DNA from: Macrostomum lignano
Taxonomy: Eukaryota
DNA: 64,000 nucleotides
Direction of reading: 5' to 3'
NCBI GenBank assembly: GCA_002269645.1
Contig: NIVC01001136.1
Location: forward strand, 1-64,000
Shown here one piece after another: positions 1 through 19,735 of the stretch. Positions within the stretch are counted from its first letter, which is position 1. Each line of letters opens with the position of its first letter. The position numbers and the translations under genes are program-made. Below the pieces are notes generated by a model, which was not told where the DNA came from, did no database searches, and worked only from the letters and a program-made list of their open reading frames with translations.

Positions 1-101
1 ATATATACGAACACACTGACACAGAAAATATTCAATACACTCAAAACCAAACCAAGTATACATTATACTACTTGTTCAACTATACGTACATCTTAAGAGA
101 A

Positions 102-1024: not shown

Positions 1025-1558
1025 AAAGACATTTTTTCTAAATCTTCATCAAATTTTGCCAGCAATATGTCCAAGTAATTGCTCTTTTAGTATATATCAA
1101 ACAAGTATGTAATCAATAATATAATCTCTATAAATTCATTATTCTAAAAAATTCTCTCAATTTTATTCATCATTCATTGAAATTATTTAATTCAATATAA
1201 AGTCAATATCCTGTACAGTTATCATTAAACAAAAATATTAATCCATGCAAATAAACTTTTTCAATATTCTTAAACTTGTATTAAATGCTTCTTTAATTTT
1301 TTCTTACAAACTAAAAATGTAATAATGGTACATATTTAACAACAAAAAATTATATACAGTATTTAACTACAGTTACACTAATCAATAAAAATGATACAGT
1401 AATACAAAAATACTAAAACACAACACAAATGCAAGTAAATATATAATCATAAAATGCTAGTTTACTTTTGCAAGAAAAATATTAATACAACAACACTCCA
1501 CTCAGGAAAACATACAAAAATATTAATGCAAATAATTGTAATAAAAGAAAAAAAAATA

Positions 1559-1581
1559 ACACACACACACACACACACACA
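1559..1581. repeat. (AC)n microsatellite
   Basis: Seen directly. Confidence 0.9.
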
Positions 1582-1991
1582 TGAAATATTTACAAAATTG
1601 TAATCAAATCCACATAAGGCAAGAATTAGTAAATAAAAAACTAAATATTTTCAAATATTAAATGTACTAATTAAGTTTTTGTTTAAAAAATATACTATTT
1701 GCTTTATTATACACTATATATTTTTCTCCATCTATTGGGTTTAATATTTCTAGTGATCAAAGCTTTTTAAACAATCATTTTCTAGGTTTTATAAAAAATA
1801 TATAAAAAAGTTATATGTCTAAATGCTTCTTATAATTTTTATATAATGAATGAAAACTATGAAAACTATTTTTTATTACAGTTAATCAACAGAAAATAAA
1901 GGAGATAGGCAACTTTTGAAAAAGTAAATAAAAAGTAAAAGTAATTTCAGTTCGAAAAAGAAAGCGTCAAAAATAAACACAATCAAAGTAA

Positions 1992-2545
1992 TCAATTAGC
2001 AACTAGAGTTGCGTCCGAATCTATGGTTGATTCCTCTAGCCTACTCAAGCCATGCTGAGTGCTTGCAACTTCTGCTTGATTTAATCCATATGGCGTCGAT
2101 GTAACTATTTTAGCTATTCGACGAGGAGACTGCCAGTTGTCATTGTCAATTGTGCCCGAGGAAGAACCACAATTGGTAATAGGTGCTTTATTAGGAGTTA
2201 CAGCTGACACACTTGTCAATGCCGTCTCTTCCATCATTTTAGTACCACCAGTAGCAGGTGAACTAAAAGTAATTGAAAGACAGTTAACTTTTAATTAATA
2301 ATATTCTTTTTACAGTGTATCAAAGCCAAGACCAGAAAAATAGCTTACATGCTCTTCTTCCAATATCGCAATCGAAATGCGACAACAACAACGCACATGA
2401 CAGCAATGACAGCTACAATAATAACCTGAACCAGACCAATTCTTTCGGTTTGGCTCACTAATTTGTCGATATTGCTCACTAGCTTACTAATAGATTCCGC
2501 ATTTCCCTGAACTAAAATTACAACTTTATTAGTTTGGGGTACCAT
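1992..2545 (-). CDS. Two-exon single-pass membrane protein of about 155 aa
   Basis: Exon 1 2545-2349 (AT|GTAAGC); 86-nt intron 2348-2263 ending TTTTAG; exon 2 2262-1992 in frame, joining two ORF-track fragments. Hydrophobic IGLVQVIIVAVIAVMCVVVVAF is followed by the basic stop-transfer segment RLRYWKK and a Ser/Thr-rich tail. Confidence 0.7.
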
Positions 2546-2859
2546 TTTCTTCTAAACTAAATAAAAATATGCAAGACAAACAAAAGAAATTCTCTAAAAT
2601 AAAAGGCACACCTATAACAATAATCCAGCTCTAGACTCTAAACTATGAATCAACGTAAAGAAAATCTCCGTTTCAAAAATAAATTTTTTATTATATAAAT
2701 ATAACAAAAAATCGTAAACTAATACTTTGTAACTAATTAGAAATATTAAGTTTGCCAACTGTTAAACTTAAATACTTGAGCAAAATATAGGTATGGATGT
2801 AGGTACGATTAGCTACATTAATTTGTAAAAATTATCTTTCTTAAGCATGCGGAAAATAC

Positions 2860-3595
2860 GTTTCTTTAGCCATGGTCTGGCTTTTGCCTCATGATTTAGC
2901 CGTATGCTCCGACTTTTGCCTCAACAGTATGATTTAGTCGTATGGTCCGACTTTTATCCCAACAGTATGATTTAGCTGTGGTCCAGCTTTTACCTCAACA
3001 GTTTTTTAGCCGTGGTCCGGCTTTTTTTGCAACAGTATTATTTAGCTGTGGTCTAGCTTAAAACTGAATCAACAGTGATTTAGTTATAGTCCAGGCTTAA
3101 CTACCTCAACGATGATTTAGCTATAGTCCAGGCTTAACTGTCTCAACAGTAATTTTAGCTGTAGTCCAGACTTAACTGCCTCAACAGTGATTTTAGCTGT
3201 GGTCCAGGCAACTGTCTCAACAGGGATTTAGCTGTAGTCCGATTAGCTTAACTGTCCAGTTATTTAGCTGTGAGCCAAGCAGCAGCACCCGTCTCAACAG
3301 TGAGAATTAGCTATGGTCAGCTTTACCTCAACTGTGATTTGGCTGCTGTGGTCTAGCATAACTGACTCAACAGTAATTTTAGCTGTAGTCGTCCAGCTTA
3401 ACCACCCGTCCAGTTTTATAACCATGGTCCAGCTTAACCACCGTCTCAACGAACAGCGATTTAGTCGTGGTCCAGCTTAACCGTCTCAACGTACAGTGAT
3501 TTAGCCATGGGTCTAGTAGCAATTAACCGTATCAATAGTGATTTAGCCGTGGTCCAGCTTAACTGTCTCAACACAGTAATTTAGCTTAGTCCAAA
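2860..3595. repeat. Degenerate ~36-40-bp tandem array (consensus approx. TGATTTAGCTGTGGTCCAGCTTAACTGTCTCAACAG)
   Basis: TTTAGCTGTGGTCC and TCAACAG modules recur roughly 18-20 times between two divergently oriented genes. Confidence 0.85.
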
Positions 3596-4209
3596 CAGCA
3601 TTTGTGTGTCAACTGCACTGACTGCATGCGGTTATAGCAGCGGCAGTCATTATAGTCCCAACAAGCTGCGCGTCGCAGCATGATAGTGTAACTCTATATA
3701 GCTTCTGCTCAATATAGGACTGCAAAAGCTGAGTTGCAACTATACCTTTTTCTGTTTGAAAAGTAACACTCTATATATAGGTTACTCAAGCAATCTCTTG
3801 TCATCGTGCGAGCTAAAAAATTCCAACATGCAAGCAAAACTTTCAATAAATTAATTTCATAGCACCGCGTGCAGCTTATTTTTACTCTAAAATCCAAGAT
3901 TGCTAATTTTTCAAGTCGCAAAATATTTTAATTACATTCTACTTGAGAACAAAACCAATCTAATGAAGCAACAACCAGCAGTCTTCTTATTAAACGCTTG
4001 CCATCGTGTTACTCTTGCAAATTTATAACTAGTGTGCCTAAGATTCATTAATTTTATTGTATAAAATATCAACCTGCATTTGCGTAAAATTAGACCTAAT
4101 TGTGCAACCCACAATAGAAACTTATGCCACCTTTGGCACGCAACATGCCTTAATCAGCACGCAACAATTAAATTTGTTTACTAGTTCACAAACAGCATGC
4201 AATGCTTGC

Positions 4210-4217
4210 TATAAATA
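4210..4217 (+). promoter_or_regulatory. Canonical TATA box (TATAAATA) upstream of the replication-gene block
   Basis: TATAAATA lies 86 nt before ATG 4296. Function is inferred from position. Confidence 0.45.
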
Positions 4218-4295
4218 CAAGACCCGAAATGGTCAATTTTTCATGAGCTCAATCATTACAGCAAAAGAAATACTATATTCAATTGCTTGTAAGAC

Positions 4296-5522
4296 ATGGC
4301 AGCTTGCATCAAGACGGAGTCAATTGTACGCTCCGACTCGAGTCCGATTTTCTACGTTGGAGAGCAGTCTACAACCACGACTGGTTCGTCCTGCCAGTTT
4401 CGATCTATTGCGTGGAAACCATCAATCGAGTGTACAAAATGGTACCCAATTATATTGCAAACCAAGGCTCCAATGGAGCTTTTTCGTGGAATCGCAGAAA
4501 GGCCAGAGCTCGATCATCCGTCTTGCAGACACGACTCTCGCGACGCAGTAAGTGTCCAATTTCATCCAGACAGCTGCGATAAGGAACTCTTCCACTCTCT
4601 CCGGTGAGCACCATATTTAATTTATACAATTAATTTTAAAAACTTTTAAAAATTTAAAAAACAAATATTCATAATTTATATAATGTTTTGCAGTCAAGTC
4701 GAAAAAGGTCTATCGGGCAAGTTGAACGAGATTCAAGATGCTCGACCCTTGGCACGACTAACAAAACCAGCTCATCAGCATGCTAACGACGTCCTCGAGT
4801 TTGTGCCTCAACAATGGCTGGCTATAAAGCCTGCTTACCCTTGTGCCACAATCAGGATCAGCAACGATCATCCACACGGGAAGGAGGTGTCCATTTCCGA
4901 TTTCAAAGGTGTCAGCGGTACCTACCAAATGACAGTGCAAGCAACGAGCTTGTATTGTCCAAAAGGCAGCCTCGTCTGGCGCATTACATTCGCTGTGCGC
5001 TCTCTAACGCTCATAGAATCTTCCGACAACATGTTGCAGCGCCTTGACATGTTCAAGGGAGTGCTTGCACACCTACCTGCGACCAAGCCAGCAATTAGAA
5101 GCAGGAGTCCGTCCCCAACGTCTACCCATGACCAAGAAGAAGCAGATGAACAAAGCCGGCAGAATTCAAGCCAGGTGACGCCTGCCAAGTCACCTGCAAA
5201 GCGTCGGTCTACCACCACCGTATCGAAGAAGTCGACTCCATCGAATGCAGCGCCAGCATCTATTGAACCGGTGGCTAAAAAGCAAGTTCGCAAACGCAGC
5301 GGTGCAAAACAGCAAAACAATTCTGCCGAAGCTGGTGCAGATGGCACAGACTGGGTGAAGGCACCACCAGCAAAGATCTTGGTGAGTACACCTGCCTCTG
5401 GAACCCGGGTAGCGTCCAAGGAGACAGCATTTTTAAAGCATGCTGCTGCTGCTGCTGCGGACGCTACTACAGCTAGCGTGTATTCATCGGACGATTCGTA
5501 CAGCAGCTCTGATGATGAGTAA
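4296..5522 (+). CDS. Two-exon 378-aa protein, putative OB-fold single-stranded DNA-binding protein with disordered, acidic-ending tail
   Basis: Exon 1 4296-4603 (CG|GTGAGC); AT-rich intron 4604-4693 (TTGCAG); exon 2 4694-5522 in frame. The pattern IILQTKAPMELFRGI...VSVQF...ELFHSLRQVE plus a beta-rich C-terminal half recalls viral gp2.5-like SSBs. The tail is S/P/K-rich and ends SSDDSYSSSDDE. The fold call is pattern recognition only. Confidence 0.5.
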
Positions 5523-5730
5523 CAAAATTTTTGACTAATTTTATCCAAGTTTTAACTAACTTAATTCCACTATATTTATCAAATTTTTGGCTAGGGAAAT
5601 ATTATTTTTAGGGAAAAGCTCAAAACATTTTTGCTACTCCTTGTACGCCAACCAGGTTTTGTTACTTAATATTAGAATTTACAATAGTATAGTCTTGTTA
5701 ATTTTTTTTATTATTTACTTTCCGTTTTAG

Positions 5731-6288
5731 CGACTTGTCCTATTAATAGTTACTGCGAGTCTGAAGCTGCGTCCGTTTGAAAAATTTGATTTAAAGCAGA
5801 CCAAACAGAAGCTACAGACCAGAAACCGGTTTTGCAAACTATTCCTAAGCCGACCAACAATGCTAAAGACAATTTATTCAAACGCAAAAATCCAACTTTA
5901 TCCAGCAGGAAAACTAACTATATATGGCTGTAAATCAAATTCTCAGATAGTTTCAGTTTTACGATTTATCAACGATACTATTAATTGTGTAGATTTTGAT
6001 TCAGTAAAAATTCAGAGCAGTACCTATGTCGGCTTTATTGGTCATCTTTGGCCAAAATTCGGTTTCTCTAGTCTAAAAAGATATGCAGGCTACTATTCGA
6101 ATTATCTGGTTGGATACGATGCAGAAAATTTCCCACAAGCAGTTTCTGTTAGATCAAAATCAAAACCAAGACTTTTTTGTAACATATTTTTTTCGAAAAA
6201 GTTTGTTATTATGGGCGTTCAAAACACTCATGAATTGAATAATATTCTTAACCATGTCAAGGATTTTTTAATCTCTGTTAATAACTAA
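5731..6288 (+). CDS. Divergent TATA-box-binding protein (TBP)-like protein; needs an upstream exon for its start
   Basis: Open frame from acceptor TTTTAG|CGA (5730/5731) to 6288. Repeat 2 KIQSS...YDAENFPQAVSVRSKSKPRLFCNIFFSKKFVIMGV matches TBP KIQNM...[33 protein letters not shown]. Repeat 1 KFDLKQ...KIQLYPAGKLTIYGCKS matches KLDLKT...TALIFSSGKMVCTGAKS. Confidence 0.8.
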   Translation, partial: RLVLLIVTASLKLRPFEKFDLKQTKQKLQTRNRFCKLFLSRPTMLKTIYSNAKIQLYPAGKLTIYGCKSNSQIVSVLRFINDTINCVDFDSVKIQSSTYVGFIGHLWPKFGFSSLKRYAGYYSNYLVGYDAENFPQAVSVRSKSKPRLFCNIFFSKKFVIMGVQNTHELNNILNHVKDFLISVNN

Positions 6289-6516
6289 ACTTAACAAGTA
6301 AACAGTTGCTGTCAAATCGCAGTTGCGATGCATTATTTTACAAACATTTTGTCTTGTTTTCATTTCTTTACCAATTGTTTTCTCTAATAGTAAACGTGCC
6401 AGCTATAACCCAATCTAACTAACCAAATCATCATTTTTCTTACAGCCGCAAATGACAAACCGGATCATCTATTAATATTATGCTCGATACGCTCGTTGTC
6501 GAGCTAGGTGCACACA

Positions 6517-7221
6517 ATGCCGCGTGCACAATGTCAAATCTGCAGAAAAAAGTTCAGCAATCAAGCTGAGCTGCATGCTCACTCGCATGGTGATTGTTTT
6601 TCGCCGGAACGATTACTGGTCGGATCACTGCAAAACCTGATCGAAAACCCACCAGATGGATGGTCCATCACTTTGCGCGAGTCAGCTCATCGTGGTCGGG
6701 TAAATTTTGTCGAATTTACTCCCACTCTTGAACAACAAGACAGCAGCTCTGGCGAGTTACTTCCTGGCGAGTTGATTGCGTCTTTAAGAGGACTAATATT
6801 TAAAATATTGGAAAAAATTGGCTCACCTAGTTTATTAATAAGAGTCTGCTTTCACTTGAAAGTGACACTTTTTCGACCGAAAGCAGCAGCAGACGACAAC
6901 GATGGCTCGAGCAGCGAAGAAATCATCTCGGTCTATTTTAATACCAACATTGCGACAATATCATTTGATGAGACGATTGCAAACAGTGACATGCTGTTAT
7001 CTCCCGAGGCCTACAATGACTGGTTCGCACGCGTTATTAATCAGCTATTAACAAAAATAGACAATTTTCAATCTCGAGGCAGTAATTGGCAATATAGAGC
7101 AATCGAGCAGCTAGACTTGATGCTCTGCATTTATCGCAAAAGCCATGCAACCACACTGTTAACAAATACGTCCCACGATGGTGTGGGAGCGGGCGGCGGT
7201 GGTGGTGGTGGTGGTGGTGGT

Positions 7222-7259
<38 letters not shown>

Positions 7260-10200
7260 GCGCGGCGAGTCCGGTCCAGTCCGGTCCGGTCCAGTCCGGT
7301 CCGGTCCGATTAAACAGCGAGCGTTTAAAGTTCCACTCTCAATCGGGCGCAAAGCTGGAGCAGTACTGCTTCTAAAGCCGCACAGAGCAAATCAGTACGA
7401 CTGTTTTCGCTACTCAATATTGGCGAGTATATTTCATCCTTGTGTGCAAGATGCGAAAAGGAAAGACAGCTATGTGCAATGGATGAGAGAATTTAATTTT
7501 GGTCGACAAGCTAATGGACCAGCTCGCCATTCAAGTAGATCGTACAAAAAATTCTGCCGACGCAATCCGAGAGTTAGTCTACGAGTATTTGTGTGGGATC
7601 ACGACACCAAGACGAGCACATTATTTTACTCGCACAGAAGCAAATATGATGGCGATCGTTATTTTGCGAGCTGTCTGTTTGTGCCGCGGTATGACGATTT
7701 TGAATTTGGTCATTATTTACCAATTCGCAATTTGAACCGGTTATTGAGCAAGCGAGGTAAACAGCGACGATATTGTCCGGAGTGCACGGCTTCGTTTCCT
7801 TGCTCAACTTCGTGGGACTATATTCTCAAGGAGCATTGCTGTGAAGGTGGTAACGTGTCATCATCATCAGCTTCTAATATTGAATGGAGTTCGGATTTTG
7901 TGCCTCAAATCCGCGAGATTCGCCATCGACCACAAGAAGTAATGCCGAAACCAGAAGACGCAATTTTAAAATTTAAATCACACGAGGCAAAACTGCCTTC
8001 GTTGTATGTCTTGTACGCAGACATGGAATGTCTATGTGCACCTGCAAATAATGAAGCAAATGTAAAAAAGACTTGTAATTCGAAGCCGCTTGAAGTCCAC
8101 GTACCAATTTGTTTGGCCTATCGTCTGATAACTTGCCAAGGTTTGCAACTGACACCAAAACTAGCTGCAGCAGTTGGAATGGGCGACAAAAAACCTTGTG
8201 GAGTAATTTACTCGCAAAAAGATGGTGAGAATTGTGTTCGACTGTTTTTACGCAAACTTCAGACCATTGCCAGCGAGATTTGTCTGCATGCTCAGACTGA
8301 GACGTTTACTCCCTTGCTACGTGAATATCTCAATATTAAATCCAACAAGAAGCTTCAGCAGACTTGCCAACTATGCAAGCGAGTATTTGACAAGACTGAA
8401 AAAACTGTGCTGGACCATTGTCACTTGACTGGTTTGCCTCGTGGCATAGTTTGCGTCTCGTGTAATCGAAAGTTAAGTTTAAAACGATACCGATTGATTG
8501 TCTACTTTCACAATTTGGCTGCCTACGATGGTAAATTTCTTGTGCGAGAGATTTACAACGTGTTTTCTGGAAACAGTGTTCAACTAAGCGTGCTACCAGA
8601 GACTCGTGAACGCTTCAAGACGTTTTCGCTAAAGTTTACATTGCCAAGTAATCAACACAAGAATGGCTTTGTGCGGTTTGAGATTTGTTTCAAGGATACT
8701 TTTGCCTATTTATCGACAAGTTTGGCTACTCTAGCCGATCGACTGCTTCCCGAGCAACTAGTGCATACAAAAGAGTTGTTAAAAACGTATCCAAAGTTGG
8801 AGCTGGCAACTCTACGACAAAAGGGAATCTATCCCTACTCTTTTTTGGACTGCGAGGAAAAATTGGACAATGTGACACAGTTACCGCCGAAGGAGAATTT
8901 TTTCAACAAGCTTACAATGTCGCACTGCACGGAAGAAGATTATGGTCGAGCTTGTGTAGCTTGGAATCAGTTCGAGTGTCAAAATCTTCGAGATTATACA
9001 ACAGCCTATTTGTTGCTTGATGTACTGCTGCTATGCGACGTCTTTGAAAATTTTCGTCAGACTGCGCTGCGTGAATATGGTCTCGATCCGACTCACTTTT
9101 TGGGTGCACCGATGTTTAGCATGGTAGCCTGCCTGTTGCGGGTAGACGAGCCAATAAAATTGTTTACCGACGCATCTATGTATGCCGAAGTTGAGTCCTC
9201 CATTCGAGGCGGTTTCAGTTTTGGAACGCGACATGTAACGACGGCCAATAACCCGAGTGTAGCAGAGTACAGAAGCGAGTTTGATCGACTTGATCCGGAC
9301 TTTGAAAGCTTGCGAAAAAATGCACCATATGGAACTTATCTAGCATACTTGGACGCTAATTCGCTCTACTCAAGCTGCATGATTCAACCTTTACCAGTTG
9401 GCGATTTTTTATGGCTATCACGCGATGAAATTGGGAACATTCCAACCGATAGTGCGAGTGCAGACTATTTGGAAAGCCCAAGTGTTAAAAGTCAACTATT
9501 GGATTGGTTAGACAAGTTTTGTAACGACGAACAAGGAGCAATGTTCACTGTGGATCTATATTATCCTCGCTTCTTGCATGACTCGACAGCAGATCTTCCG
9601 CTTGCAATTGGTCACGAATTAGTTGGCGAAGACCGACTTAGTGAACAGATGAAACTGGACTGGTTTTGCCTTCAAAGAGAACTCAATCCAGATCGTTTTG
9701 AAAACGCAACAAGCTATGGTGATGTGAAAGCTTTCAGCAGCTCGACGCGAAAATTGATTGGGTCTGTGCTTCACAAAAAGAAGTATGTTGTGCATCATCG
9801 AGCTCTTCGATTGTATCTAGAATTGGGAATGCGCGTAACGCGTGTTTACCGCGTAATTCGATTTACAGAACGACCAATTTTGCGATACTATATTGAACAC
9901 AATATTGAGCGGCGTAAAGTAGCAAAAACTGAATTCGAACGCGACTTTTTCAAGTTGCTAAATAATGCTCTTTTCGGAAAGTTTCTGCAACGAGTTCGCG
10001 ATCGACTCAATTTCCGCATGTGTTCAGAAGCTGAAAAATTGGAGAAATATGTTTCTCGAGAAGATTTTCTTGACGTAGTAATTTATAATGAAAGTCTGGC
10101 AGGAGTTAGCCTCGCTCCACGTCGTGTTGCGCTAGACAAACCGATTATAATCGGTGCTGCAATCTTAGACATTGCAAAGACTCTTGTATACGACTTTTAT

Positions 10201-10752
10201 TACAATCATGTTCAGATTCATCATTCACTAGCAAGTGCTCGGGTACTCGCAGGAGATACTGATAGTCTTATGCTGGCTCTAGTTATGCGTAAACCGGACG
10301 AGACTCCTTACGATACCTTGTTCAAAGATTTGGCAGAAGAAGGTTTGCTAGACACGAGTAACTATTCACCATCGCATGCTCTGTACTCGACAAAGCACAA
10401 GGGTCGACTTTTGGCGTGGAAAGACGAGTTTAAAGGTTGTATACCACTGGAACTGGTATTTTTGCGACCAAAAAATTACTCCTTCGTGTATGCCAATGGA
10501 ACTATAGATCAAGTCTCGCGCTGCAAAGGTGTCTGCAAGACTGTAGCACAAAGTTTAAAGCATCAAGACTATTTGAGAGTTTTGCACAAGCGACAACTTG
10601 TGTTTTCGCGCATGCAGTCGATTCGTTCTAGAAAACAGAAAGTTTTTTTAATGCAACAAAGAAAACTTGCACTAAGTTTTTTCGACACGAAGCGATCTTG
10701 GACAGACTGCATCGATTCGCTGCCCTTTGGTCACTGGCGCTTGACCAATTAA
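6517..10752 (+). CDS. Protein-primed family B DNA polymerase (pPolB) with terminal-protein region, Zn fingers and an endonuclease-VII-like insertion
   Basis: Exo I YADMEC, Exo II HNLAAYDG, KGIYPY, Exo III YLLLDVLLL; motif A DANSLY, motif B KLLNNALFGK, motif C GDTDS; N-terminal C2H2 finger CQIC...H...H; CQLC...DHCHLTG...CVSCN module. First ATG is 6517 (the ORF track starts at GTG 6508). Confidence 0.97.
7192..7307. repeat. In-frame (GGT/GGC)n = 23 Gly, followed by CCGGT/CCAGT pentamer repeats, inside pPolB
   Basis: Seen directly; the reading frame is preserved. Confidence 0.9.
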
Positions 10753-11041
10753 CAATATGCTCTGATCTCTTTTGTTGTACAAAGTATAAATAGCATGCTA
10801 TAGAAGACTGTAAGCCATCAATAGTTTTTTCATTGATCATAATTTTACAATAAATAAATGGTGCGTGCATTCATTTAATCTATAATTTTAGCACTTTTTT
10901 GTGCTTAATTATTTGAAAGAGTATAATTTTTTATAGTTAGATTCGTATGACTAGGTTGTAGTGACCGTAAATGTAATTGCTAACGCTCATGTTTCAAGGA
11001 AAAAACTTTTTTAAACTTTCAGCTACAATTGAATCGACAAC

Positions 11042-11527
11042 ATGAATGCCGAGCAGCAGCAACAACAACAACAGCAGCAGCAGTACCAACTTTTAGTGGA
11101 ACGCCTGTACGAATCGGCAACAATTCCGGCCCGAAAAACTGTCGGCTCGATTGGTTACGATCTTTGCGCAGGCGTTGATGGCACTATTCCAGCCTACGAG
11201 TCCCGCAGTGTACGAACCGGACTTAAAGTCCGGTTACCGGCTGGTACGTATGGCAGGATTGCGGCCCGATCGAGCATGGCTCTGCGCGGTATCTTTGTTG
11301 GCGGTGGCGTAATCGACCCCGACTATACAGGGGAAATCTGTATAGTTTTATTCAACTACAGCTCGGAGGATTTTGATTACTACGCCGGGCTAAGTATCGC
11401 GCAACTCGTTCTTGAGCAGGCTGTGCTTGCTTCAGTCTATGCGATTGAAGCCGATAACTCCATTCGGAAGATTGAGCCGCCGACCAAGCGGCGCGGTTTT
11501 GGCGGCTTTGGAAGCACTGGTCAATAA
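11042..11527 (+). CDS. dut: Trimeric-type dUTPase with N-terminal poly-Gln
   Basis: All five motifs are present: GYDL, RSSMA, GGVIDPDYTGEI, IAQLV, RRGFGGFGSTG. Confidence 0.95.
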   Translation: MNAEQQQQQQQQQQYQLLVERLYESATIPARKTVGSIGYDLCAGVDGTIPAYESRSVRTGLKVRLPAGTYGRIAARSSMALRGIFVGGGVIDPDYTGEICIVLFNYSSEDFDYYAGLSIAQLVLEQAVLASVYAIEADNSIRKIEPPTKRRGFGGFGSTGQ

Positions 11528-11652
11528 TAATGATAATGATAATAAACTGATTTTTTTTTATTTGGTGATTGGGCACTATGCCTTGTAAATGCTATAAGCA
11601 ATTTTAAAATTTATGCCAAAAAAAAAATATATATATATATATATGTTGTAAA

Positions 11653-12072
11653 ATGTCTCCAGCGAAAGATCGAGGTTTTAAAAAGAAAAAGAAGAGCAGT
11701 CGTATAAAGAAGAAATCTATTAGAAAGATTAATAAAAAGCAACAAGGTTTTGGTGTCGTAAATTGGTTAATTAATCATTTACCATTTGAAGCGCATTTAC
11801 CCGGCGGATATCAGTTTTGTGGTCCAGGTACGCAACTGCAAGCTAGGCTAGCAAAAGGACAACGAGGAATCAATCGACTTGACAATTTGTGCATGCTTCA
11901 CGACGTGGCCTATGATAAAAATTCGGACGTGCAAGAGAGATTAAAAGCTGATAAGCTATTAGAATCTGGTGCACGAGAAATTGCCCACGATCCGTCTACT
12001 GGTTGGAAAGAAAAACTAGCTGCGAAGTTGGTTACCAAGGTTATGCAAGTTAAGCAACGCTTTGGTGCTTGA
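11653..12072 (+). CDS. Parvovirus VP1u-type phospholipase A2 domain protein with basic N-terminus (Polinton virion accessory protein)
   Basis: Ca-loop QFCGPG and catalytic LHDVAYD; K/R-rich N-terminus followed by QQGFG. Confidence 0.85.
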   Translation: MSPAKDRGFKKKKKSSRIKKKSIRKINKKQQGFGVVNWLINHLPFEAHLPGGYQFCGPGTQLQARLAKGQRGINRLDNLCMLHDVAYDKNSDVQERLKADKLLESGAREIAHDPSTGWKEKLAAKLVTKVMQVKQRFGA

Positions 12073-12074
12073 AA

Positions 12075-12764
12075 ATGCAGCAGCCATACAATATGCAACT
12101 AGCTCACGATTCTACATTTATTATTGCTGGACCTTCAAACTCGGGTAAAACTGAATGGACGTTGCGTTTGTTGACTGAACGAAAAGAATTATTTGATGAA
12201 AAACCGCGTCGTCTTGTTTGGTGTCATGGATCAAGTTTGAAACCAGACGATCAACAACGAATTAGAACATGCTGGCAAAAGAGCGGTCTTGACCCTATTG
12301 TTTTTGTACCCGAATTCATACCACAGATGATTAATCGTTTTTTACCACACGATTTGGTTGTTGTTGACGACTTGCAAAGCGAGATTGCTAAGTTGCCAGA
12401 ATTTACTAGTATGTTTACAAAGCATGCGCATCATATCCCTTTGACTTGTCTGTATCTTTGTCAAGGTCTTTTTAACAAGTCTGATCCCGAAGCACGCATG
12501 CGAAGTTTATCAGCTAGTTATATTTGTCTAACTCGTAGTGTGCGCGATCGAACCACAGTTGAGCATCTCGGTCGACAAATGTATCCGCGTAATAGTAGGT
12601 TTCTAGTGAATGTGTATGAAGACGCAACAAATAACAAACCTTTTTCATATTTATTCATTGACCTGCGACAAATGACACCCGATTTTTTACGATTGAGAAC
12701 AGGAATCTTTCCTGGCGATGAGCAAGTTGTCTATACTCGTGAATGTGATGCAAAGTTTGTGTAA
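12075..12764 (+). CDS. A32/FtsK-like DNA packaging ATPase
   Basis: Walker A GPSNSGKT, Walker B VVVDDLQ, and the A32-family segment FTKHAHH...CLYLCQGLF. Confidence 0.93.
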   Translation: MQQPYNMQLAHDSTFIIAGPSNSGKTEWTLRLLTERKELFDEKPRRLVWCHGSSLKPDDQQRIRTCWQKSGLDPIVFVPEFIPQMINRFLPHDLVVVDDLQSEIAKLPEFTSMFTKHAHHIPLTCLYLCQGLFNKSDPEARMRSLSASYICLTRSVRDRTTVEHLGRQMYPRNSRFLVNVYEDATNNKPFSYLFIDLRQMTPDFLRLRTGIFPGDEQVVYTRECDAKFV

Positions 12765-12821
12765 TATTATTATAAGCAAATTATAAACTGTTGTCAATAT
12801 TAGTTTGTGTTTTATTTCAAA

Positions 12822-13811
12822 ATGAGTTTTTACGTTTTTTTGCCGTCAAACGATATCAGTTACGAAACCAACTCGCCTAATGAATTTCGAGTACGACTAA
12901 CTGAACCAATAAATTTATTGAACGGATTCTTCGAGGTTGCACTAGTTGAATTACTTTGCCATGGAGCAATTACGACCCCAAATGCTCATCGTGAGCGTCG
13001 ATTTGAAGTTCCATATTTTGCGGACATTGACTCAATAATACGATTAAAGAAAAACTATTGGGGTCGCGTTTGGGCAGAGGCAGACTTGGATGCTTACGTT
13101 TCCTGGCAACCGTCTGGTACAAATGAAAAATTTGCCTGGCTTTTACGAAATTCAGGCGAAAAAACTATTGGATTAGAACTACCGGTTACATTTATGGACG
13201 CTTTCAAATTTGACTCTTGGAAGAAACTTTCTGGACTTGTCTCGGAAAAATTATCAAAACCTACCGCTGGTAGTGTACAACCACCGGATGGATCATACTT
13301 GGATGTGGTAAAAAGTCTCGACAATACTCTAGCGCTAGTACCTGAGAACTATTATGTTTTTTATTGTGTTCTATCGCCTGGTGAAGCTATACGACTTGTT
13401 TCGCATGGAGACTATCTTCAAAAAACGGAAGGAGAAGTGTACATCAAATTACACCAATATTGGTTGAGAAATCGTATTTGGCGCATTAACAAAACCTACT
13501 TGGATGCTGTGCTACCTTCTCCGATGCCTAGTAAAACGGTTTACATGTACTGTTACACAGACATAATCGAGTATCAAGCAGTGGGAAGTACATCAGTACC
13601 GTTGCTTCGAGTTGTGGAACTCCAACAAAAGAAAAATGGAGAACTTGTACGCGATAGCAGTGCATTGCAAACACCCTACTACTTGAAAACAAATCGACAA
13701 CAAATTCACGAGATTTCGATTCGACTATCGGACCAGCGCGGAAAACCATTTAATTTTCATCCGGGAGCACACGTTGTTGTCGTACTGCATTTTAGACACA
13801 GGTCAGACTAA
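12822..13811 (+). CDS. Minor capsid protein (penton-like single jelly roll)
   Basis: N-terminal LPSN...FRVRLTEPINL.G.FEVALVE and C-terminal YTDII...VG...PLLRVV...ISIRLSDQRGKP...VVVLHFR are typical of Polinton minor capsids. Confidence 0.85.
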   Translation: MSFYVFLPSNDISYETNSPNEFRVRLTEPINLLNGFFEVALVELLCHGAITTPNAHRERRFEVPYFADIDSIIRLKKNYWGRVWAEADLDAYVSWQPSGTNEKFAWLLRNSGEKTIGLELPVTFMDAFKFDSWKKLSGLVSEKLSKPTAGSVQPPDGSYLDVVKSLDNTLALVPENYYVFYCVLSPGEAIRLVSHGDYLQKTEGEVYIKLHQYWLRNRIWRINKTYLDAVLPSPMPSKTVYMYCYTDIIEYQAVGSTSVPLLRVVELQQKKNGELVRDSSALQTPYYLKTNRQQIHEISIRLSDQRGKPFNFHPGAHVVVVLHFRHRSD

Positions 13812-13867
13812 TTTATAAGCAAAGATTAATGTGTAAAAAGAAAATTTTGTGAATTTTTTTTGTAAGA

Positions 13868-14296
13868 ATGAACGAACTAACAGAAAAAGGAAAACGAAAT
13901 GCTCGCTCATTGTGTCAGTGTGCTTTTTTACTACAAATTGTTTATCGGCTAAAGCATCCAAAGCAGAGAAAAAGTTTTTTACAAACACTTTCAGAGTCGG
14001 AGATACGATGTCTAGTAGACTTTCTGTTTAATATTATTAGTGGACGTATTAAAATTAGTAACTGTAACAAAAGACGACTTGAGAAGCATCGCAGATATAT
14101 ACGTCAGCTTTTGGAACAGAAGACTCCAATTACTGCAAAAAGGAAAATACTTGTCCAACACGGAGGATTTTTACCTTTTTTGGCTCCAATTATTGCCGCT
14201 CTACCTGCTATAAGCACTGCGCTTGGGATAACGTCTGGAGTAGTTGGTACCGCCGCGGGAGCAGCAAATTTAATACGATCAATTCAACGAAAGTAG
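13868..14296 (+). CDS. Conserved Polinton small virion protein with a QxGG/FLP cleavage site and amphipathic C-terminus
   Basis: EIRCL...NIISGRI...L.KHR..IR.L...KRKIL.QHGGFLP pattern, then FLPFLAPIIAALPAISTAL. Confidence 0.7.
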   Translation: MNELTEKGKRNARSLCQCAFLLQIVYRLKHPKQRKSFLQTLSESEIRCLVDFLFNIISGRIKISNCNKRRLEKHRRYIRQLLEQKTPITAKRKILVQHGGFLPFLAPIIAALPAISTALGITSGVVGTAAGAANLIRSIQRK

Positions 14297-14304
14297 TAGG
14301 AATA

Positions 14305-14994
14305 ATGCGAGCCAAGGAGAGTAGTAGTTTTCAACGAATGTATCTAGTACCTGAATCTGTGTATCAATCTACATGTCAAGGAGCAGAACAAGGTTCGTCA
14401 CCAGCTGCTGAGGTACCTCGAAAAACTGAAGTTTTAGACGCACCGCAAGATGGTCTGGCAAAAAATATGGTGGAAATGAGAGAACAAATGGATAACTTGG
14501 ACAAGGAAATGGAGAAGGAGCCAAATTACACAGCTCAATTGAAACGAAGCAGATTGGAAGACAAACTTTTAAAATTACGCAAAGTCTATCGCACTGGAGA
14601 CGAGGACAATCTGCCACTTGTTCGCAAAGGGACTAATGTAAGAAGCTCATATGCCAGAGAATCAAGGGAAATTCCTAAAGTTTTTTTACCACGTTTCGAA
14701 GCTCTCGCTCAAAACCTATTTTCGGACATGGACAAGAATGCAGAACCAATGCTGGCTAATTTGACTGATGGCGAGATACAAGATCTCATGGAATATGTTG
14801 TTCGAGACAGACCGCTTAAGCGACACGAGACTCAACCACCTAGTGGACTAAAAACATTTTTAGACTTTCTTCGAAAACGTGGAATCGCAGCAAACCAAAT
14901 CGGGCGTCATGTACGAAACGAGCTAATGCATGCTCCAAAAACTGTTGCAAAGGAGGATCTTAGTCTGTTTGAAAATTATCAAACACTGGCTTAA
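14305..14994 (+). CDS. Polinton uncharacterised protein, 229 aa
   Basis: Intact ORF within the structural module. RMYLVP and LDKEM segments resemble a recurrent Polinton ORF; function unknown. Confidence 0.65.
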   Translation: MRAKESSSFQRMYLVPESVYQSTCQGAEQGSSPAAEVPRKTEVLDAPQDGLAKNMVEMREQMDNLDKEMEKEPNYTAQLKRSRLEDKLLKLRKVYRTGDEDNLPLVRKGTNVRSSYARESREIPKVFLPRFEALAQNLFSDMDKNAEPMLANLTDGEIQDLMEYVVRDRPLKRHETQPPSGLKTFLDFLRKRGIAANQIGRHVRNELMHAPKTVAKEDLSLFENYQTLA

Positions 14995-15092
14995 TTTGTT
15001 TTAAATGTTTTAACAAAATTGATTCGAGCACTATAAGCTTTTTAAAAAGGTTAATTTTGTTTATGAAAATATATAGTTTAATAAGACAAACC

Positions 15093-15281
15093 ATGTCATC
15101 TATCTGCCAAAAACTTTTGATTCGTCTCTGTGAGTTTTTTTGCTTAAAATCCGAATGTGTGCCGTTTCTGGGAGAGGAGCACAACGAGGATACTGACGGA
15201 AATTCGATCGAGGCTTCGTTCTTTTGTTGCAATTGGCATACGAATAGCATCAATCTAACTCATGATGAAGCGAGTGCGTAA
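15093..15281 (+). CDS. Small Cys-containing ORF (62 aa) overlapping the integrase start
   Basis: MSSICQKLLIRLCEFFCLKSEC...; ATG lies 61 nt after TATAAGC 15032, the same spacing as the other motif-associated genes. Confidence 0.4.
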   Translation: MSSICQKLLIRLCEFFCLKSECVPFLGEEHNEDTDGNSIEASFFCCNWHTNSINLTHDEASA

Positions 15282-16422
15282 GGAAATTGAAGAATTTTTG
15301 ACGGATGCTTTTTTTAACTTGAACAAACCTACTTCATTTAGTGGTAACAAGACTATACTTGTTCGTGAAGTGCGTAAAAAGTTTCCACAGATTACGAACA
15401 AAGTTGCGAAGCGCGAAGTTGATAATTGGGTGCGATCAACAAATGAGCATCATTTATTTCGAAAAACACGACGAAACTTTCCAACTCCAAAAATTAGTGT
15501 ACCACCAGTTGCAAAGTTTCAGTTTCAAATCGATTTGGCAGATTTACCTCGATACAAGACGGAAAATCGAGGTTATCGTTACATACTTGTTCTGATTGAC
15601 TGTTTTACTAGAGTTGTACGACTAAGACCATTGCGTACAAAGAAGCCTTCAGAAGTTAGTCAAGTATTACTAGAGATTTTTCGAAGTGGTTTTAAGCCTG
15701 TTTATTTACAAGGTGATGCTGGTATGGAGTTTCTCGGAAGAGCTACACGTCAAATGCTGAAACAGGAAGGAGTTCGATTTTTTGTTAGCCAAAGCAATTA
15801 CAAGGCAAGCATGGCTGAACGATTTATCCGCTCGCTAAAGGAGCGTCTATTACGATACTTTCGAGCAAAAAATTTACCTCGATGGTTTGATATTTTGCCA
15901 CAATTGGAAGATAATTTCAACTCTAGTCCTCATCGATCCTTGAGTGGAGAAACACCAAAACGTGTAGAGACAGACCCACATTTACAAGGAATTTTGTGGG
16001 ACAAAATGTTTGCGAAGTCGTACACTAAAAAGAATGAGAATAAATTTAAAGTTGGTGATTGGGTTAGAATTACACGACGTCGAGGAACATTTGAAAAAGG
16101 ATACACTACGAGTTGGAGTAATTCAAAATATCGCATTCACCGTGTACACTTGACAGAACCGCCAATGTACGAATTAGCGGACCCTGAAGATGGATTTGAA
16201 GTGCTGAAAGGAAGGTTTAACCAAGCGGAACTAATGTTGGTAAACGAGACAGATGAAACACCTAATGAAATTGAAAAAGTTATTGAAACTGATCGATCGA
16301 AAAATGGAAGTCGTCTGTATCTAGTAAAATGGAAAGGTATGCCAATCTCAAGAAGTCAGTGGTTAAACGAAAAGGATCTTGACGCAAAGACTGCTAAACT
16401 ATTTTCTAAAGTGTATAAGTAA
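15262..16422 (+). CDS. Retroviral-like (rve) DDE integrase with SH3-like and C-terminal chromodomain
   Basis: QIDLADL (D), LQGDAGMEF (D), ASMAERF (E); FKVGDWVRI; IEKVI...YLVKWKG...QWL. Confidence 0.96.
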   Translation: MMKRVRKEIEEFLTDAFFNLNKPTSFSGNKTILVREVRKKFPQITNKVAKREVDNWVRSTNEHHLFRKTRRNFPTPKISVPPVAKFQFQIDLADLPRYKTENRGYRYILVLIDCFTRVVRLRPLRTKKPSEVSQVLLEIFRSGFKPVYLQGDAGMEFLGRATRQMLKQEGVRFFVSQSNYKASMAERFIRSLKERLLRYFRAKNLPRWFDILPQLEDNFNSSPHRSLSGETPKRVETDPHLQGILWDKMFAKSYTKKNENKFKVGDWVRITRRRGTFEKGYTTSWSNSKYRIHRVHLTEPPMYELADPEDGFEVLKGRFNQAELMLVNETDETPNEIEKVIETDRSKNGSRLYLVKWKGMPISRSQWLNEKDLDAKTAKLFSKVYK

Positions 16423-16463
16423 CACATGAATTGGGATTGCATGACGATGAGAAGACTGTTGAA

Positions 16464-16922
16464 ATGGATCCTATTTTTGCTTTTTATTCTGGTCCGAATA
16501 GATCTGCTGAAGGTGGAGGTGGATCTGGCATTCCTGTTTACGAAGGTTACGGTTTTTTGTCAAATTTGGCGGACAGATTGGTGTATCCTGTACTACGCAA
16601 CGCAAAGAAAGATTTCTTGGATCGTGGTCTGGAGTATTTGAAAAGTGCGACAGCAAAAATTGGTATGGGTCGGAAGCGTCACTTGGACACAGAATCGAGC
16701 GAAGAGATGTTTAATACACCTGCAGTCTCGAGACCAAAGCGAAGGAAAAGAACCAGTGGAGTGGCTATAAGCTTAGGAAAGAAGAAACGACAAAAGAAAC
16801 GACGAACAAGACAGTGTGGAAAAGGACGCGTGAACAAACGAAAACGCAAGAGGGTAGGTGGTAAAAGAAAACGTCGAACTGCTACTGCAAGCAAGAAACT
16901 TTTTAGTCTGTTTGAAAAGTAG
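16464..16922 (+). CDS. Basic DNA-condensing core-protein precursor (adenovirus pVII-like role inferred)
   Basis: YEGYGFLSNL amphipathic segment, then a protamine-like K/R-rich C-terminus (RPKRRKR...KKKRQKKRRTRQCGKGRVNKRKRKR). Confidence 0.7.
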   Translation: MDPIFAFYSGPNRSAEGGGGSGIPVYEGYGFLSNLADRLVYPVLRNAKKDFLDRGLEYLKSATAKIGMGRKRHLDTESSEEMFNTPAVSRPKRRKRTSGVAISLGKKKRQKKRRTRQCGKGRVNKRKRKRVGGKRKRRTATASKKLFSLFEK

Positions 16923-16923
16923 C

Positions 16924-18246
16924 ATGAATCATTTGCTTGGACCTGATATTGCTGCTCTTAAAAGTGAATTGTCGCTATTTGATCAAAGTCCTGTTCAGTT
17001 TAGTGTTTTGGATAATCGGTATACTAACATTCAACCGCAACATGGTATTACAAAAGGATCACCTATCGAATTTGAGGTTGTGCCTGCAGGCGATTTGTAT
17101 TTGGATCTACAAGAAACTGTGCTCACGGTATGCTTCAGCGTTAGTGATAGTGAAGGTGAACCTATAGATGCAACAAAAAATTTTGTTTGTTTGAATAATT
17201 TGGCTATTGGAACATTGTTTGAAGACGTTCAATTTACTATTGGCGATACTGTAGTTGAAGGTGGTAGTTTTATGTATCCATACAAGGCTATGCTTCTTAC
17301 ATTACTGGAATACGGACATACAGCTCAGAAGGCTGGTTTACTACCGTGGGGATTTTACAAGGATACAGCTGGTAAAATGAATGCAACAAGTGAAAACGAT
17401 GGACGAACAAAGAGGCAGGCGCTTATTGCTAACAATAGGCGGTGCACTGTATCGGGGCCGTTATTCTTGGATTTGTTTCGTCAGCCTCGGTATCTACTAT
17501 CAAAGACACCACTGCGGATCAAGCTCATACCGGCAAAAAGTAAATTTGTCCTGAGCGGGTCAACATTAGAAGCTGGTGCGGTATTAAAAGACTATGAGAT
17601 CAAGTTTTTGCGTGCAGAACTACGATTGCGGTTTGTTCAACCCTCGCCGAGTGTTATCAGTGCACATGCTCATGGACTTAAAAGTCACAATGCATTATAT
17701 CCGCACCGAAGTCTAAGCCTTGGTACGTTTACTATACCCCGAGGATCGTCTAGCCATACGCATGAAAATTTGTTTCCTAGTGGAGTACCACGGCTTTTAT
17801 TGATGGCAATCGTAAGCAACAAGGCATTCAATGGAAGCATGGACACTAATCCGTTCAACTTTGAGCATGCAAATGTGAGCAGCATTGGTGTGTTTGTGAA
17901 TGGAGACTCGGTACCATCGCGTCCGCTGCAGACAAACTTTGGAGATGATTGTGTGACAGAGTATAATTTTTTGCTACAACAGCTTGGAATCTATCTACAG
18001 GGACGAGATATTGGATTTAATATGCTGGATTACGGTAATGGTTACTCAATTTTTGCATTCAGTCTTGGAAGTGAACCTGGTGTCGGACGAGGAGTGCAAC
18101 TGTATAAGGAAGGAAATGTAAAACTAGAGTTACGCTTCAATGCTGCAACTAGTACCGTGTACAACGTCATATTTGGAGGTATATTTGACAAGCAACTGCA
18201 ACTGACTGAACTTCGCGACATTGTTCCTGGCACAGTATGGAAGTAA
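16924..18246 (+). CDS. Major capsid protein (double jelly roll)
   Basis: KSELSLF...PIEFEV...YLDL and later GPL..DLF.Q.RYL, NPFNF, GY.IFAF.L, LELRF motifs. ATG at 16924 (the ORF track starts at 16858). Confidence 0.93.
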   Translation: MNHLLGPDIAALKSELSLFDQSPVQFSVLDNRYTNIQPQHGITKGSPIEFEVVPAGDLYLDLQETVLTVCFSVSDSEGEPIDATKNFVCLNNLAIGTLFEDVQFTIGDTVVEGGSFMYPYKAMLLTLLEYGHTAQKAGLLPWGFYKDTAGKMNATSENDGRTKRQALIANNRRCTVSGPLFLDLFRQPRYLLSKTPLRIKLIPAKSKFVLSGSTLEAGAVLKDYEIKFLRAELRLRFVQPSPSVISAHAHGLKSHNALYPHRSLSLGTFTIPRGSSSHTHENLFPSGVPRLLLMAIVSNKAFNGSMDTNPFNFEHANVSSIGVFVNGDSVPSRPLQTNFGDDCVTEYNFLLQQLGIYLQGRDIGFNMLDYGNGYSIFAFSLGSEPGVGRGVQLYKEGNVKLELRFNAATSTVYNVIFGGIFDKQLQLTELRDIVPGTVWK

Positions 18247-18800
18247 TTGATTCTATCCTAGATCGTGGAGTAACAGATCGCTTCCTTCGCAATGTTGTAT
18301 CGAAATTGTGCGCACATTTTTTAAATGTTGTATTTCTTGGTGTTTTTCCTCAAAACTTTGTTGGTGGACTTAGACGCTTACCTTTAGACGGTAAAGACTA
18401 TTTTTTTATCGTTAATACTGACGTCTCTAACCTGCCCGGAAAACATTGGGTATGCGTTTGGGTTTATGGTCATCGAGCAGGTCGCGGTAGCAAACGACTT
18501 GGTGAATATTTTGATTCTCTTGGTCTAGTACCATTGCCAAGAATAGCAAAATGGCTAGGAAAAGAATGTGGAAATTCGAAAAATTGGTGTTATAGTCGCT
18601 TTGCTATCCAAGACCCGCAGAGTGGAAGTTGTGGATTTTGGGTAATTTTTTATATTTTTCATAAGTTGACTACCAGAGGAAACCTAGAGTGTTTTATTCG
18701 AAGCGTTTTTAAACGGAATATAATTCGCACTGGTTCGTTTCGATACTTGTATGGTAAATTACGCAATTTTGTTTTACGAGTGCTGCCTCAATATTTGTAA
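18237..18800 (+). CDS. Adenain-like (C5) cysteine maturation protease
   Basis: His/Asp/Cys motifs: NTD...GKHWV, YFDSLG, Q....SCGFW. Confidence 0.92.
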   Translation: MEVIDSILDRGVTDRFLRNVVSKLCAHFLNVVFLGVFPQNFVGGLRRLPLDGKDYFFIVNTDVSNLPGKHWVCVWVYGHRAGRGSKRLGEYFDSLGLVPLPRIAKWLGKECGNSKNWCYSRFAIQDPQSGSCGFWVIFYIFHKLTTRGNLECFIRSVFKRNIIRTGSFRYLYGKLRNFVLRVLPQYL

Positions 18801-19735
18801 ACTCGCTAATTTGTGCGTCAAATTGTGTTTATATCTAGTTGAAATATACAATATACTGCTTGAAAAGAAGAATTTAAATGCGTTAAGTTATACGTGAAAT
18901 AAGCTTTGTGTCAAATTGAATTTTGGTTGGGCTTGTAATTAGCAGCATTCATTGCGGATAGAATTTAGGTGGATAGACAGGTGTTTGCGTAAAAGTGATT
19001 CAGCTAATTGGTTAATTCATTGCGTAAAAGCTAGTTTGCGTGCACGGCAAATTTCGGACTCTGCCATTTTTTTGGGCCTGTACTTACTATGTATTTCGCC
19101 ATAAGGAAATCGGCTTTGTGTCAAAAAAACGTATACTACTATTGTATATTTTGCTATCCTCTCTCGCAACCGTATAAAATTGGCACGATCGATAATTTTA
19201 AGTTCTCTCGCCAGCCAATGAAATCACTCGTGCTCGCGCTACCCCCCTCTGCGCTCTTTTATTAAACCCCCCCCCGCCTGGCGGCGGCACTCCCCGCTTG
19301 TTCCTTGATTCCTTCCCTGCGGCCTCTTAGCTGTCTTATCTGTTTGTCTGGCTGCCTCGAGCCTCCTTATTTCTCACCACGGCCCCTCTGCCTGGGCCAG
19401 CCTGCTCACACACTTACTTGACTGTTTCGCGCCACGACCGACGCCAACTCGCCACTACGTTTCACTGCCTTCACTGTGCTCATAGCCACTGCTCACGTCA
19501 CGTCGCCATTGTGTCATTCGCCTGCCACTTGACTTCATATCCAAATTATATTCAACCCATTGTTGCAGCCGCCAGTGCCCAGAAAGCTATAGTCTGTTTA
19601 TTGCCAGTAACAACCAAACTTAATACTGATATTAACAATAAAGACAACTACGGCAGTTCCTGCCTTTATCGCCAAGTGCTCCGCTACAAAATCCGCTTTA
19701 CAAGAATTGACTTCAACTTATTTTGGGACTAAAAC

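Follow-up and report, generated by a model that had tools for sequence, protein, structure and literature searches.

Among the described systems closest to the one treated here are the late promoters of herpesviruses, in which the protein ORF24 reads TATTWAA with a polar TATA-binding protein (TBP) face (PMC12529657). As for Polintons, the accessible text of a study on MELD viruses uses TBP as a gene label in two figure legends, and the word 'promoter' occurs in it 0 times (10.1101/697771), whilst term searches of two other Polinton papers gave no mention of TBP, TATA or promoter. No description of Polinton TBP promoters or of a late promoter code was found in a literature search that left most subscription papers and supplements outside, and the papers that could be searched yielded no explanation of capsid-gene timing in these elements. 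The present analysis concerns a Maverick/Polinton element of the flatworm Macrostomum lignano, located at 1..19140 on the + strand of a 64,000-nucleotide stretch of contig NIVC01001136.1 (assembly GCA_002269645.1, positions 1 to 64,000), hereafter the window. This element encodes a stand-alone TBP-like protein, and six genes of its capsid module are preceded by a non-canonical TATA-like box, TATAAG(C/T), which is conserved among sister families and replaced by other boxes in two further lineages with TBP-like proteins of their own.

A preliminary description of this DNA had listed seven such sites, all of which are present on the + strand: TATAAGCAA at 11593..11601, 12771..12779 and 13814..13822, TATAAGC at 15032..15038, 14209 and 16766..16772, and TATAAGTAA at 16414..16422. 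As had been claimed, those at 11593, 12771, 13814, 15032 and 16414 lie 60, 51, 54, 61 and 50 nt, respectively, before the starts of the PLA2-domain gene (11653), the presumed minor capsid gene (12822), the pX/mu-like core gene (13868), a small ORF (15093) and the basic core gene (16464); additional ATGs lie between box and start at 11593, 13814, 15032 and 16414, and the site at 16414 also forms the Tyr-Lys-stop codons of the integrase gene. The sites at 14209 and 16766 both read GCT ATA AGC in frame, the next ATGs being 14305 and 16924, and the second of them lies inside the core gene, 158 nt before the presumed major capsid gene. It also holds that TATAAG is absent from 4000-11527 and that a canonical TATAAATA (4210..4217, +) stands before the first (possibly SSB-like) gene, an early one. 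TATAAGC, for which 0.5-1 chance copies had been estimated by hand, occurs six times in 11528-16923, whereas shuffles that preserve codon use and base composition contain 0.13 copies on average, and none of 2000 reaches six. TATAAGC is the top 7-mer of this interval, beyond the best p of 100 null sets, and is absent from its reverse strand. The 6-mer TATAAG gives a weaker signal (7 against 1.70, 1/2000 shuffles, the top 6-mer being another word), and over the whole window TATAAGC occurs at chance level (9 against 9.45), so that the excess is local to the capsid module.

The element belongs to family A, one of five families (A-E) in the same 764-Mb genome; the capsid proteins of the four sister families share 81, 74, 69-70 and 66-67% identity with that of the window. 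A protein deposited from M. lignano is 97% identical over 219 aa to one that a sister lineage encodes. All the Polinton loci compared in this work come from this one genome, none from another species. When box slots are defined as six genes (PLA2, minor capsid, pX, small ORF, core and major capsid) in five families, a box is found in 30/30 of them, 27 being exact and three having one mismatch (two TATATGC, one TTTAAGT). The slots before the minor capsid and pX genes are occupied in 5/5 families, as are those before the PLA2-domain gene and the small ORF with one TATATGC each, and the slot before the core gene is exact in 4/5, the fifth reading TTTAAGT. The same families are only 0.18-0.42 identical at fourfold-degenerate sites over 26 gene pairs, which is near random (saturated). 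Aligned A-E sites (n=28, selected on the core) read TATAAG followed by C in 24/28, A in 22, A in 22 and A in 17. The site within the core gene reads xxT ATA AGC in 6/6 loci of the five families, behind Ala, Ser, Gly or Thr, and is present in 30/30 capsid loci, mostly near-identical copies; since the protein is only 42-47% identical to that of the window, what is selected here is the DNA and not the protein. In these comparisons, B2 (L035/L036) is close to B and does not make a sixth family, degraded or off-target loci (L111-L118) were excluded from counts, the PLA2 start of family C was set by hand, its box distance being uncertain, and the upstream windows of the ATPase gene in B and E are shortened by locus ends.

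Two TATAAG sites were rejected as boxes. The copy at 14209..14215, inside the pX gene, had been put forward as a promoter but occurs in 1/5 families only and is probably a chance word or a gain of family A, so this claim has to be dropped. Another one at 18103, missing from the preliminary list, consists of Tyr-Lys codons, occurs in 3/5 families and tracks the protein.

Two more distant lineages of the same genome, F/G and H, with capsid proteins ~28-32% identical, both encode TBP-like proteins and show different boxes at positions matching those of A-E, some of them inside coding sequence: TATAAATA in F/G and (C/T)TTAAGAA in H. Compared with codon-preserving shuffles, TATAAG[CT] occurs 4-7 times against 0.35-0.92 in six A-E loci, TATAAATA 6 times against 0.27 in both F/G loci, and CTTAAGAA 4-6 times against 0.13-0.41 in four H loci, whereas the box of each lineage counts 0 in the other TBP lineages. 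The three motifs were first chosen by eye; they or their cores are among the top four 7-mers in 11/12 loci, the exception being D. In the comparison of sister Polintons by TBP status that had been suggested, the lineages with TBP are enriched in their boxes; in lineage J, a weak control, the TBP profile gave no match and none of the three boxes is enriched (2 loci counted), PolB, integrase, ATPase and capsid-like genes being present.

The boxes also behave as core promoters would. Across the three lineages, 39/52 lie 39-61 nt before a start and none is closer than 39 nt. Out-of-frame ATGs behind them occur at chance from +9 to +28 (16 against 17.8) and are depleted beyond +32 (13 against 32.7; with in-frame ones included by hand count, 18 against 32.7, p 0.004), a modest depletion (Fisher p 0.02, pooled) that fits a transcription start near +30. 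No box follows the last gene in any of ten loci, and no other core promoter motif was seen adjoining the boxes. The first genes of the three lineages carry TATAWAWR in 13/14 cases and an A-E or H late box in 0/14, and boxes of A-E never overlap a canonical TATA (0/29), with A at -1 in 1/29 (p 0.0009). Conservation at saturated divergence, strand bias, the 39-nt lower limit and the absence after the last gene argue together for a selected promoter element, and there is little doubt on our side that these boxes are the (late) core promoters of the capsid-module genes. This half of the earlier interpretation is strongly supported, and the other half, that the boxes are read by the TBP of the element, has indirect evidence in its favour. 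Four runs were compared as contigs, from which starts, strand and level are not readable, the RNA status of three of them being a guess; cover falls at 10542-11075 in these three, at most a weak hint. A contig starting 34 nt behind the box at 15032 was not used, contig ends not being start sites.

The candidate reader is the product of a gene at 5731..6288 (+), of 185 aa when counted from a splice acceptor, with a Pfam TBP match (E 2.1e-7). It is a TBP family member by its two-lobed saddle fold and its PF00352 match: the AlphaFold model has a pLDDT of 94.2, from an input alignment that included host TBP, and the matches that Foldseek listed at ranks 1-44 all belong to chains or fusions of TBP (best E 1.7e-9, TM ~0.7, ~20% identity). 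A word-indexed protein search gave no match for this protein, and a full profile search turned up roughly a dozen close relatives (without gene context), followed by cellular TBPs. The nearest Atlas clusters are viral TBP-domain clusters. The H protein is also assigned to TBP by Pfam. A TBP tree separates A-E, F/G and H with strong support and leaves the origin of these groups unresolved; identity among the aligned A-E families is 41-45%.

The ORF from the first ATG (5860) misses the first TBP strands, and the domain begins at 5731, directly behind a pyrimidine tract with an AG acceptor in phase 0 (5700..5730, +). The same arrangement is found in 5/5 A-E families (window, L033, L038, L107 and L042), F and G carry CAG at the matching place, and an upstream in-frame ATG is absent from the TBP-like genes of 4/5 families. 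Splicing at the 5731 acceptor was not seen in the four runs. One possible source of the start codon is an upstream exon; another is the flatworm spliced leader, which has AUG at its end (PMC9851317). Acceptor-like sites also occur near PolB (~6446) and the dUTPase gene (~11023).

The DNA-binding face is remodelled differently in each lineage. At positions of the TBP alignment that we take to follow yeast numbering, the eight A-E-type rows share Q for L114, Y for F116 and the pair F190-P191; they keep F207 and have lost F99 and both asparagines, so that the canonical set of four intercalating Phe and two Asn is absent from A-E. The register of the C-lobe differs by two between two alignments, and the asparagine is lost in both. 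N69 is kept in both H and F/G, whose residue in place of P191 is S in the former and N in the latter, and the replacement residues of the DNA face are invariant within each lineage, the host TBP being canonical. Positions L114 and L205 are reportedly those of altered-specificity TBP work in yeast. Proline has been described as favouring T at the first TATA position (PMC12529657), so that P191 fits the boxes of A-E (always T) as opposed to H (C or T), although not those of F/G. The stirrup glutamate E188, a TFIIB contact, is invariant in 18/18 rows. Among the 16 window proteins scanned with Pfam, there was no match to TFIIB and none above cut-off to RNA polymerase.

Three TBP lineages with three boxes, the lack of a box in the lineage without detectable TBP and the remodelled DNA-binding faces make the element's own TBP the probable reader and activator of the late boxes. 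The pathway would start with host TBP and RNA polymerase II (Pol II), which would initiate the early unit at the canonical TATA at 4210; this unit would be spliced and yield the first protein, the TBP-like protein, PolB and dUTPase. Once accumulated, the element TBP would bind TATAAG(C/T)AA and, by way of the acidic stirrup that it has kept, bring in host TFIIB and Pol II; short-leader late mRNAs for the virion, packaging and integrase genes would start ~30 nt downstream of the box. Finally, each lineage would have re-tuned the DNA face of its protein together with its box.

Several observations weigh against this reading. The loss of one intercalating Phe and both asparagines in A-E makes weaker or even no DNA binding possible. 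The TBP assignment is weaker in F/G, where Pfam gives 21.9 bits against a cut-off of 22.9 in G and no match in F, hhalign gives 93.9% on one lobe, and the F-lineage fold, with a pLDDT of 36.6, counts neither way. Their late box, TATAAATA, is canonical and identical to the early TATA of family A (4210-4217, compared with L046 and L050), which makes cross-activation between co-resident lineages conceivable. With only three lineages, and kin sharing both motif and protein, the diagonal pattern is no proof of co-evolution, and lineage J is a weak control since it is AT-rich and differently organised. In lineage H (L073:69-1146, L074, L076-L078), the TBP gene is the last one of the late cassette and stands behind a late box of its own, which would allow a positive feedback. 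The ATG depletion does not reach significance when A-E are taken by themselves (p 0.10) and is absent when H is (p 0.76), nor does the interval +22..+37 behind the boxes show an initiator peak. Moreover, a box of their own is rare before the ATPase (1/5), 229-aa (1/5) and protease (0/5) genes and mostly lacking before the integrase gene, each of which abuts or overlaps a boxed gene.

The alternative that survives best, although we consider it unlikely, is that host TBP/TFIID alone reads the boxes, which would be tuned or weak TATA variants inherited per lineage, the element TBP doing something else, such as acting as a decoy or shutting off early promoters. The canonical host TBP, the form of the F/G late box, which conforms to TATAWAWR, and the residues lost from the A-E protein would all suit this alternative. 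So would the tolerance of TBP for boxes of this kind. A G(-26) TATA variant presumably reads TATAAG. A host-type TBP binds that variant (PDB 1qn5), and expression driven by TATAAGA and TATAAGT in HeLa cells was like that from miniCMV (PMC13732139), so host factors alone could read the A-E box. However, the H box (C/T)TTAAGAA does not conform to TATAWAWR and yet lies before nearly every late gene, the A-E boxes avoid the canonical form that the first genes of the same elements carry, and the DNA-face replacements do not vary within a lineage.

A second alternative, in our view quite improbable, keeps the element TBP on the boxes as a repressor or genome organiser, keeping late genes off or compacting the DNA, instead of as an activator. 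The lineage pairing would look the same, and the protein has neither an extra Pol II-binding domain of the ORF24 type nor a TFIIB partner among the scanned proteins. On the other side, the TFIIB-contact glutamate is invariant in all rows, the spacing of the boxes and the depletion of ATGs are in keeping with a core promoter that precedes the start by ~30 nt, and no other core promoter motif was seen beside the boxes.

It is very improbable that a helper virus supplies an RNA polymerase of the baculovirus type for which the boxes serve as late promoters. Promoters of that type have the form (A/G/T)TAAG, with the start inside the motif. The A-E (ATAAG) and H (TTAAG) boxes do contain a TAAG core, and leaders of 40-60 nt would fit, but TATA is invariant in 28/28 aligned sites (selected on that core), and conservation reaches CAAA. 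TATATGC in two orthologous slots and an F/G box lacking TAAG depart from the invariant TAAG of that class, no RNA polymerase was matched above cut-off in the scanned proteins, ATGs are tolerated at +9..+28, and the spliced early unit depends on nuclear Pol II; the start inside TAAG considered in the preliminary description is disfavoured on the same grounds. Least credible of all is a role at the RNA level, in which the boxes would be signals for the 3' end of the upstream gene or for operon processing, since, although many boxes touch the upstream stop codon, several F/G ones contain AATAAA and M. lignano has operons and spliced-leader trans-splicing (PMC8629364), none follows the last gene in ten loci, the A-E site that is conserved best is located within the core ORF, ~120-165 nt inside it, and late starts show, by eye, no consistent pyrimidine-AG acceptor, unlike the TBP gene.

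With regard to the element as a whole, a protein-primed PolB (PF03175) and a retroviral-type integrase (PF00665), both above cut-off, identify it as a Polinton/Maverick. The match of sister copies to the window ends at 19140, the right end; one sister copy extends to the left of window base 1 and carries at its left end an 83-nt inverted match (96%) to 19037-19119, a possible terminal inverted repeat. The left end of the window's own element lies before the first base of the window. All genes lie on the + strand. The first one is spliced (exon 4296-4603, intron 4604-4693, exon 4694-5522), with a GT..AG joint (4603/4694) in one contig of run X1, one of the four runs; it may have an SSB/PC4-like role, the Pfam scan giving nothing above cut-off for 4296..5522 and the first gene of lineage H being PC4 by Pfam. 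It is followed by the TBP-like gene, PolB (6517..10752), dUTPase (11042..11527, PF00692), the PLA2-domain gene (11653-12072, Pfam), the packaging ATPase (12075-12764; Pox_A32 E 0.046, below cut-off), the presumed minor capsid gene (12822-13811, 329 aa), the pX/mu-like core gene (13868-14296, PF05829), the 229-aa gene, the small ORF at 15093 overlapping the integrase gene (15262-16422, rve and chromo domains), the basic core gene (16464-16922), the presumed major capsid gene (16924-18246, 440 aa) and the protease (18237-18800; Peptidase_C5 E 0.033, below cut-off). Neither capsid protein has a Pfam match; both are named by size, position and conservation across lineages. Searches with the capsid alignment gave no match in viral contigs and three short loci in metagenomes, and the ATPase alignment gave no match in viral contigs.

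Some other features of these elements deserve to be recorded. A 3.16-kb deletion internal to PolB, joining 7388 to 10552, is present in 4/4 of the other family-A loci compared (L054, L055, L058 and L059) and in the deepest run, X17, so that the non-autonomous form seems to be the majority; the copies with this deletion retain the TBP-like gene. A very high-copy repeat starts directly past the element end (19141-19600), with a depth of ~21,600 against ~900 in the element in run X17. Degenerate tandem repeats at 2860-3600, upstream of the early promoter, are shared with a sister copy that lacks window bases 1261-2891. In families B-E the TBP-like gene is followed by a deoxynucleoside-kinase gene (PF01712 in the case of E, L042:5893-6615) that family A lacks, and in B and C the kinase ORF overlaps or continues the TBP frame; the dUTPase gene of family E also stands behind a late-type box. 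In lineage G, a Fic-domain gene (PF02661, L049:7765-8541) lies just upstream of the early genes of one copy. The TBP gene of lineage H overlaps an ORF of unknown family that lies upstream of it; this lineage also has a PC4-like first gene and encodes PolB on the opposite strand. Lineage I (L080, L124-L125) is very abundant, with 1691 first-look integrase candidates, and has integrase, PolB, protease and a PLA2-domain gene; its partly recovered stretches contain no capsid gene, and it was therefore not used as a control. Lineage J (L081-L082, L085-L086, L101) is AT-rich, bidirectional and polinton-like, and several of its genes have TATAAA directly before the ATG, which is reminiscent of cytoplasmic-virus late starts. 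Finally, no capsid genes were seen in short elements with a second PolB type (L089-L090, L095-L096, L091-L094), two of which have a divergent PC4-like gene and are flanked on either side by similar repeats.

Taken a step further, these data tentatively suggest, at a confidence just short of an even balance, a one-protein late switch in which a bare TBP, possibly with a start codon from the spliced leader, would redirect the Pol II of the host to a box private to its lineage; box and protein would diverge together, giving largely insulated codes within one genome (TATAAGCAA, TATAAATA and YTTAAGAA). If so, no smaller viral late-transcription system would be known, and a natural set of altered-specificity TBP-box pairs would be at hand. 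In any case, a defined late box with a candidate reader makes the timing of Polinton capsid genes directly testable, and the selection on these boxes across saturated divergence argues that the integrated elements kept a regulated virion programme. The three TBP-box pairs in one genome also constitute a natural 3x3 test of how TBP specificity is rewired, in a setting far simpler than the six-protein herpesvirus complex.

A last question is how this arrangement relates to known systems. The gene content (PolB, rve integrase, packaging ATPase, protease, pX-like core, PLA2 domain and capsid-sized genes in a cassette) is that of Polintons/Mavericks (adintoviruses). Adenoviruses are similar in their spliced early unit, related core, protease and capsid-module genes (PF05829, weak PF00770). 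They depend on one major late promoter, host TBP and alternative splicing, as opposed to the six separate boxes found here. A shared motif before the genes of a small capsid-encoding element is also known from virophages and polinton-like viruses (mavirus, Sputnik and PgVV-14T), where, according to the accessible text, the motifs belong to the helper virus (10.1101/2022.07.28.501842), whereas in this case the element itself codes for the candidate reader and has a spliced early unit. Large dsDNA viruses have divergent two-lobed TBP-like proteins as well, but most of them bring their own TFIIB and have diverged stirrups (PMC7221094, whose accessible text mentions Polinton 0 times), and the scanned proteins of the element include no TFIIB match. 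Another parallel is with beta- and gammaherpesviruses (KSHV ORF24), in which a virus-encoded divergent TBP is likewise paired with a TATA-like box of non-canonical form ahead of late genes, early promoters are conventional and the DNA face of the TBP is more polar (PMC12529657). As in these viruses, a non-canonical box is limited to late genes, judged by gene class, in A-E and H, although not in F/G. In ORF24, as far as described, the N-terminal domain binds Pol II and the C-terminal one DNA, five activators act as its partners, and the TFIIB-contact acids are missing; by contrast, neither the Pol II-binding domain nor the five partner families were found among the 16 scanned proteins, and the Polinton protein is a bare saddle of ~180 aa that keeps the stirrup Glu and whose box differs between co-resident lineages. 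By this analogy, the Polinton system is not a member of the beta/gammaherpesvirus late switch but would work like it, with a single protein.

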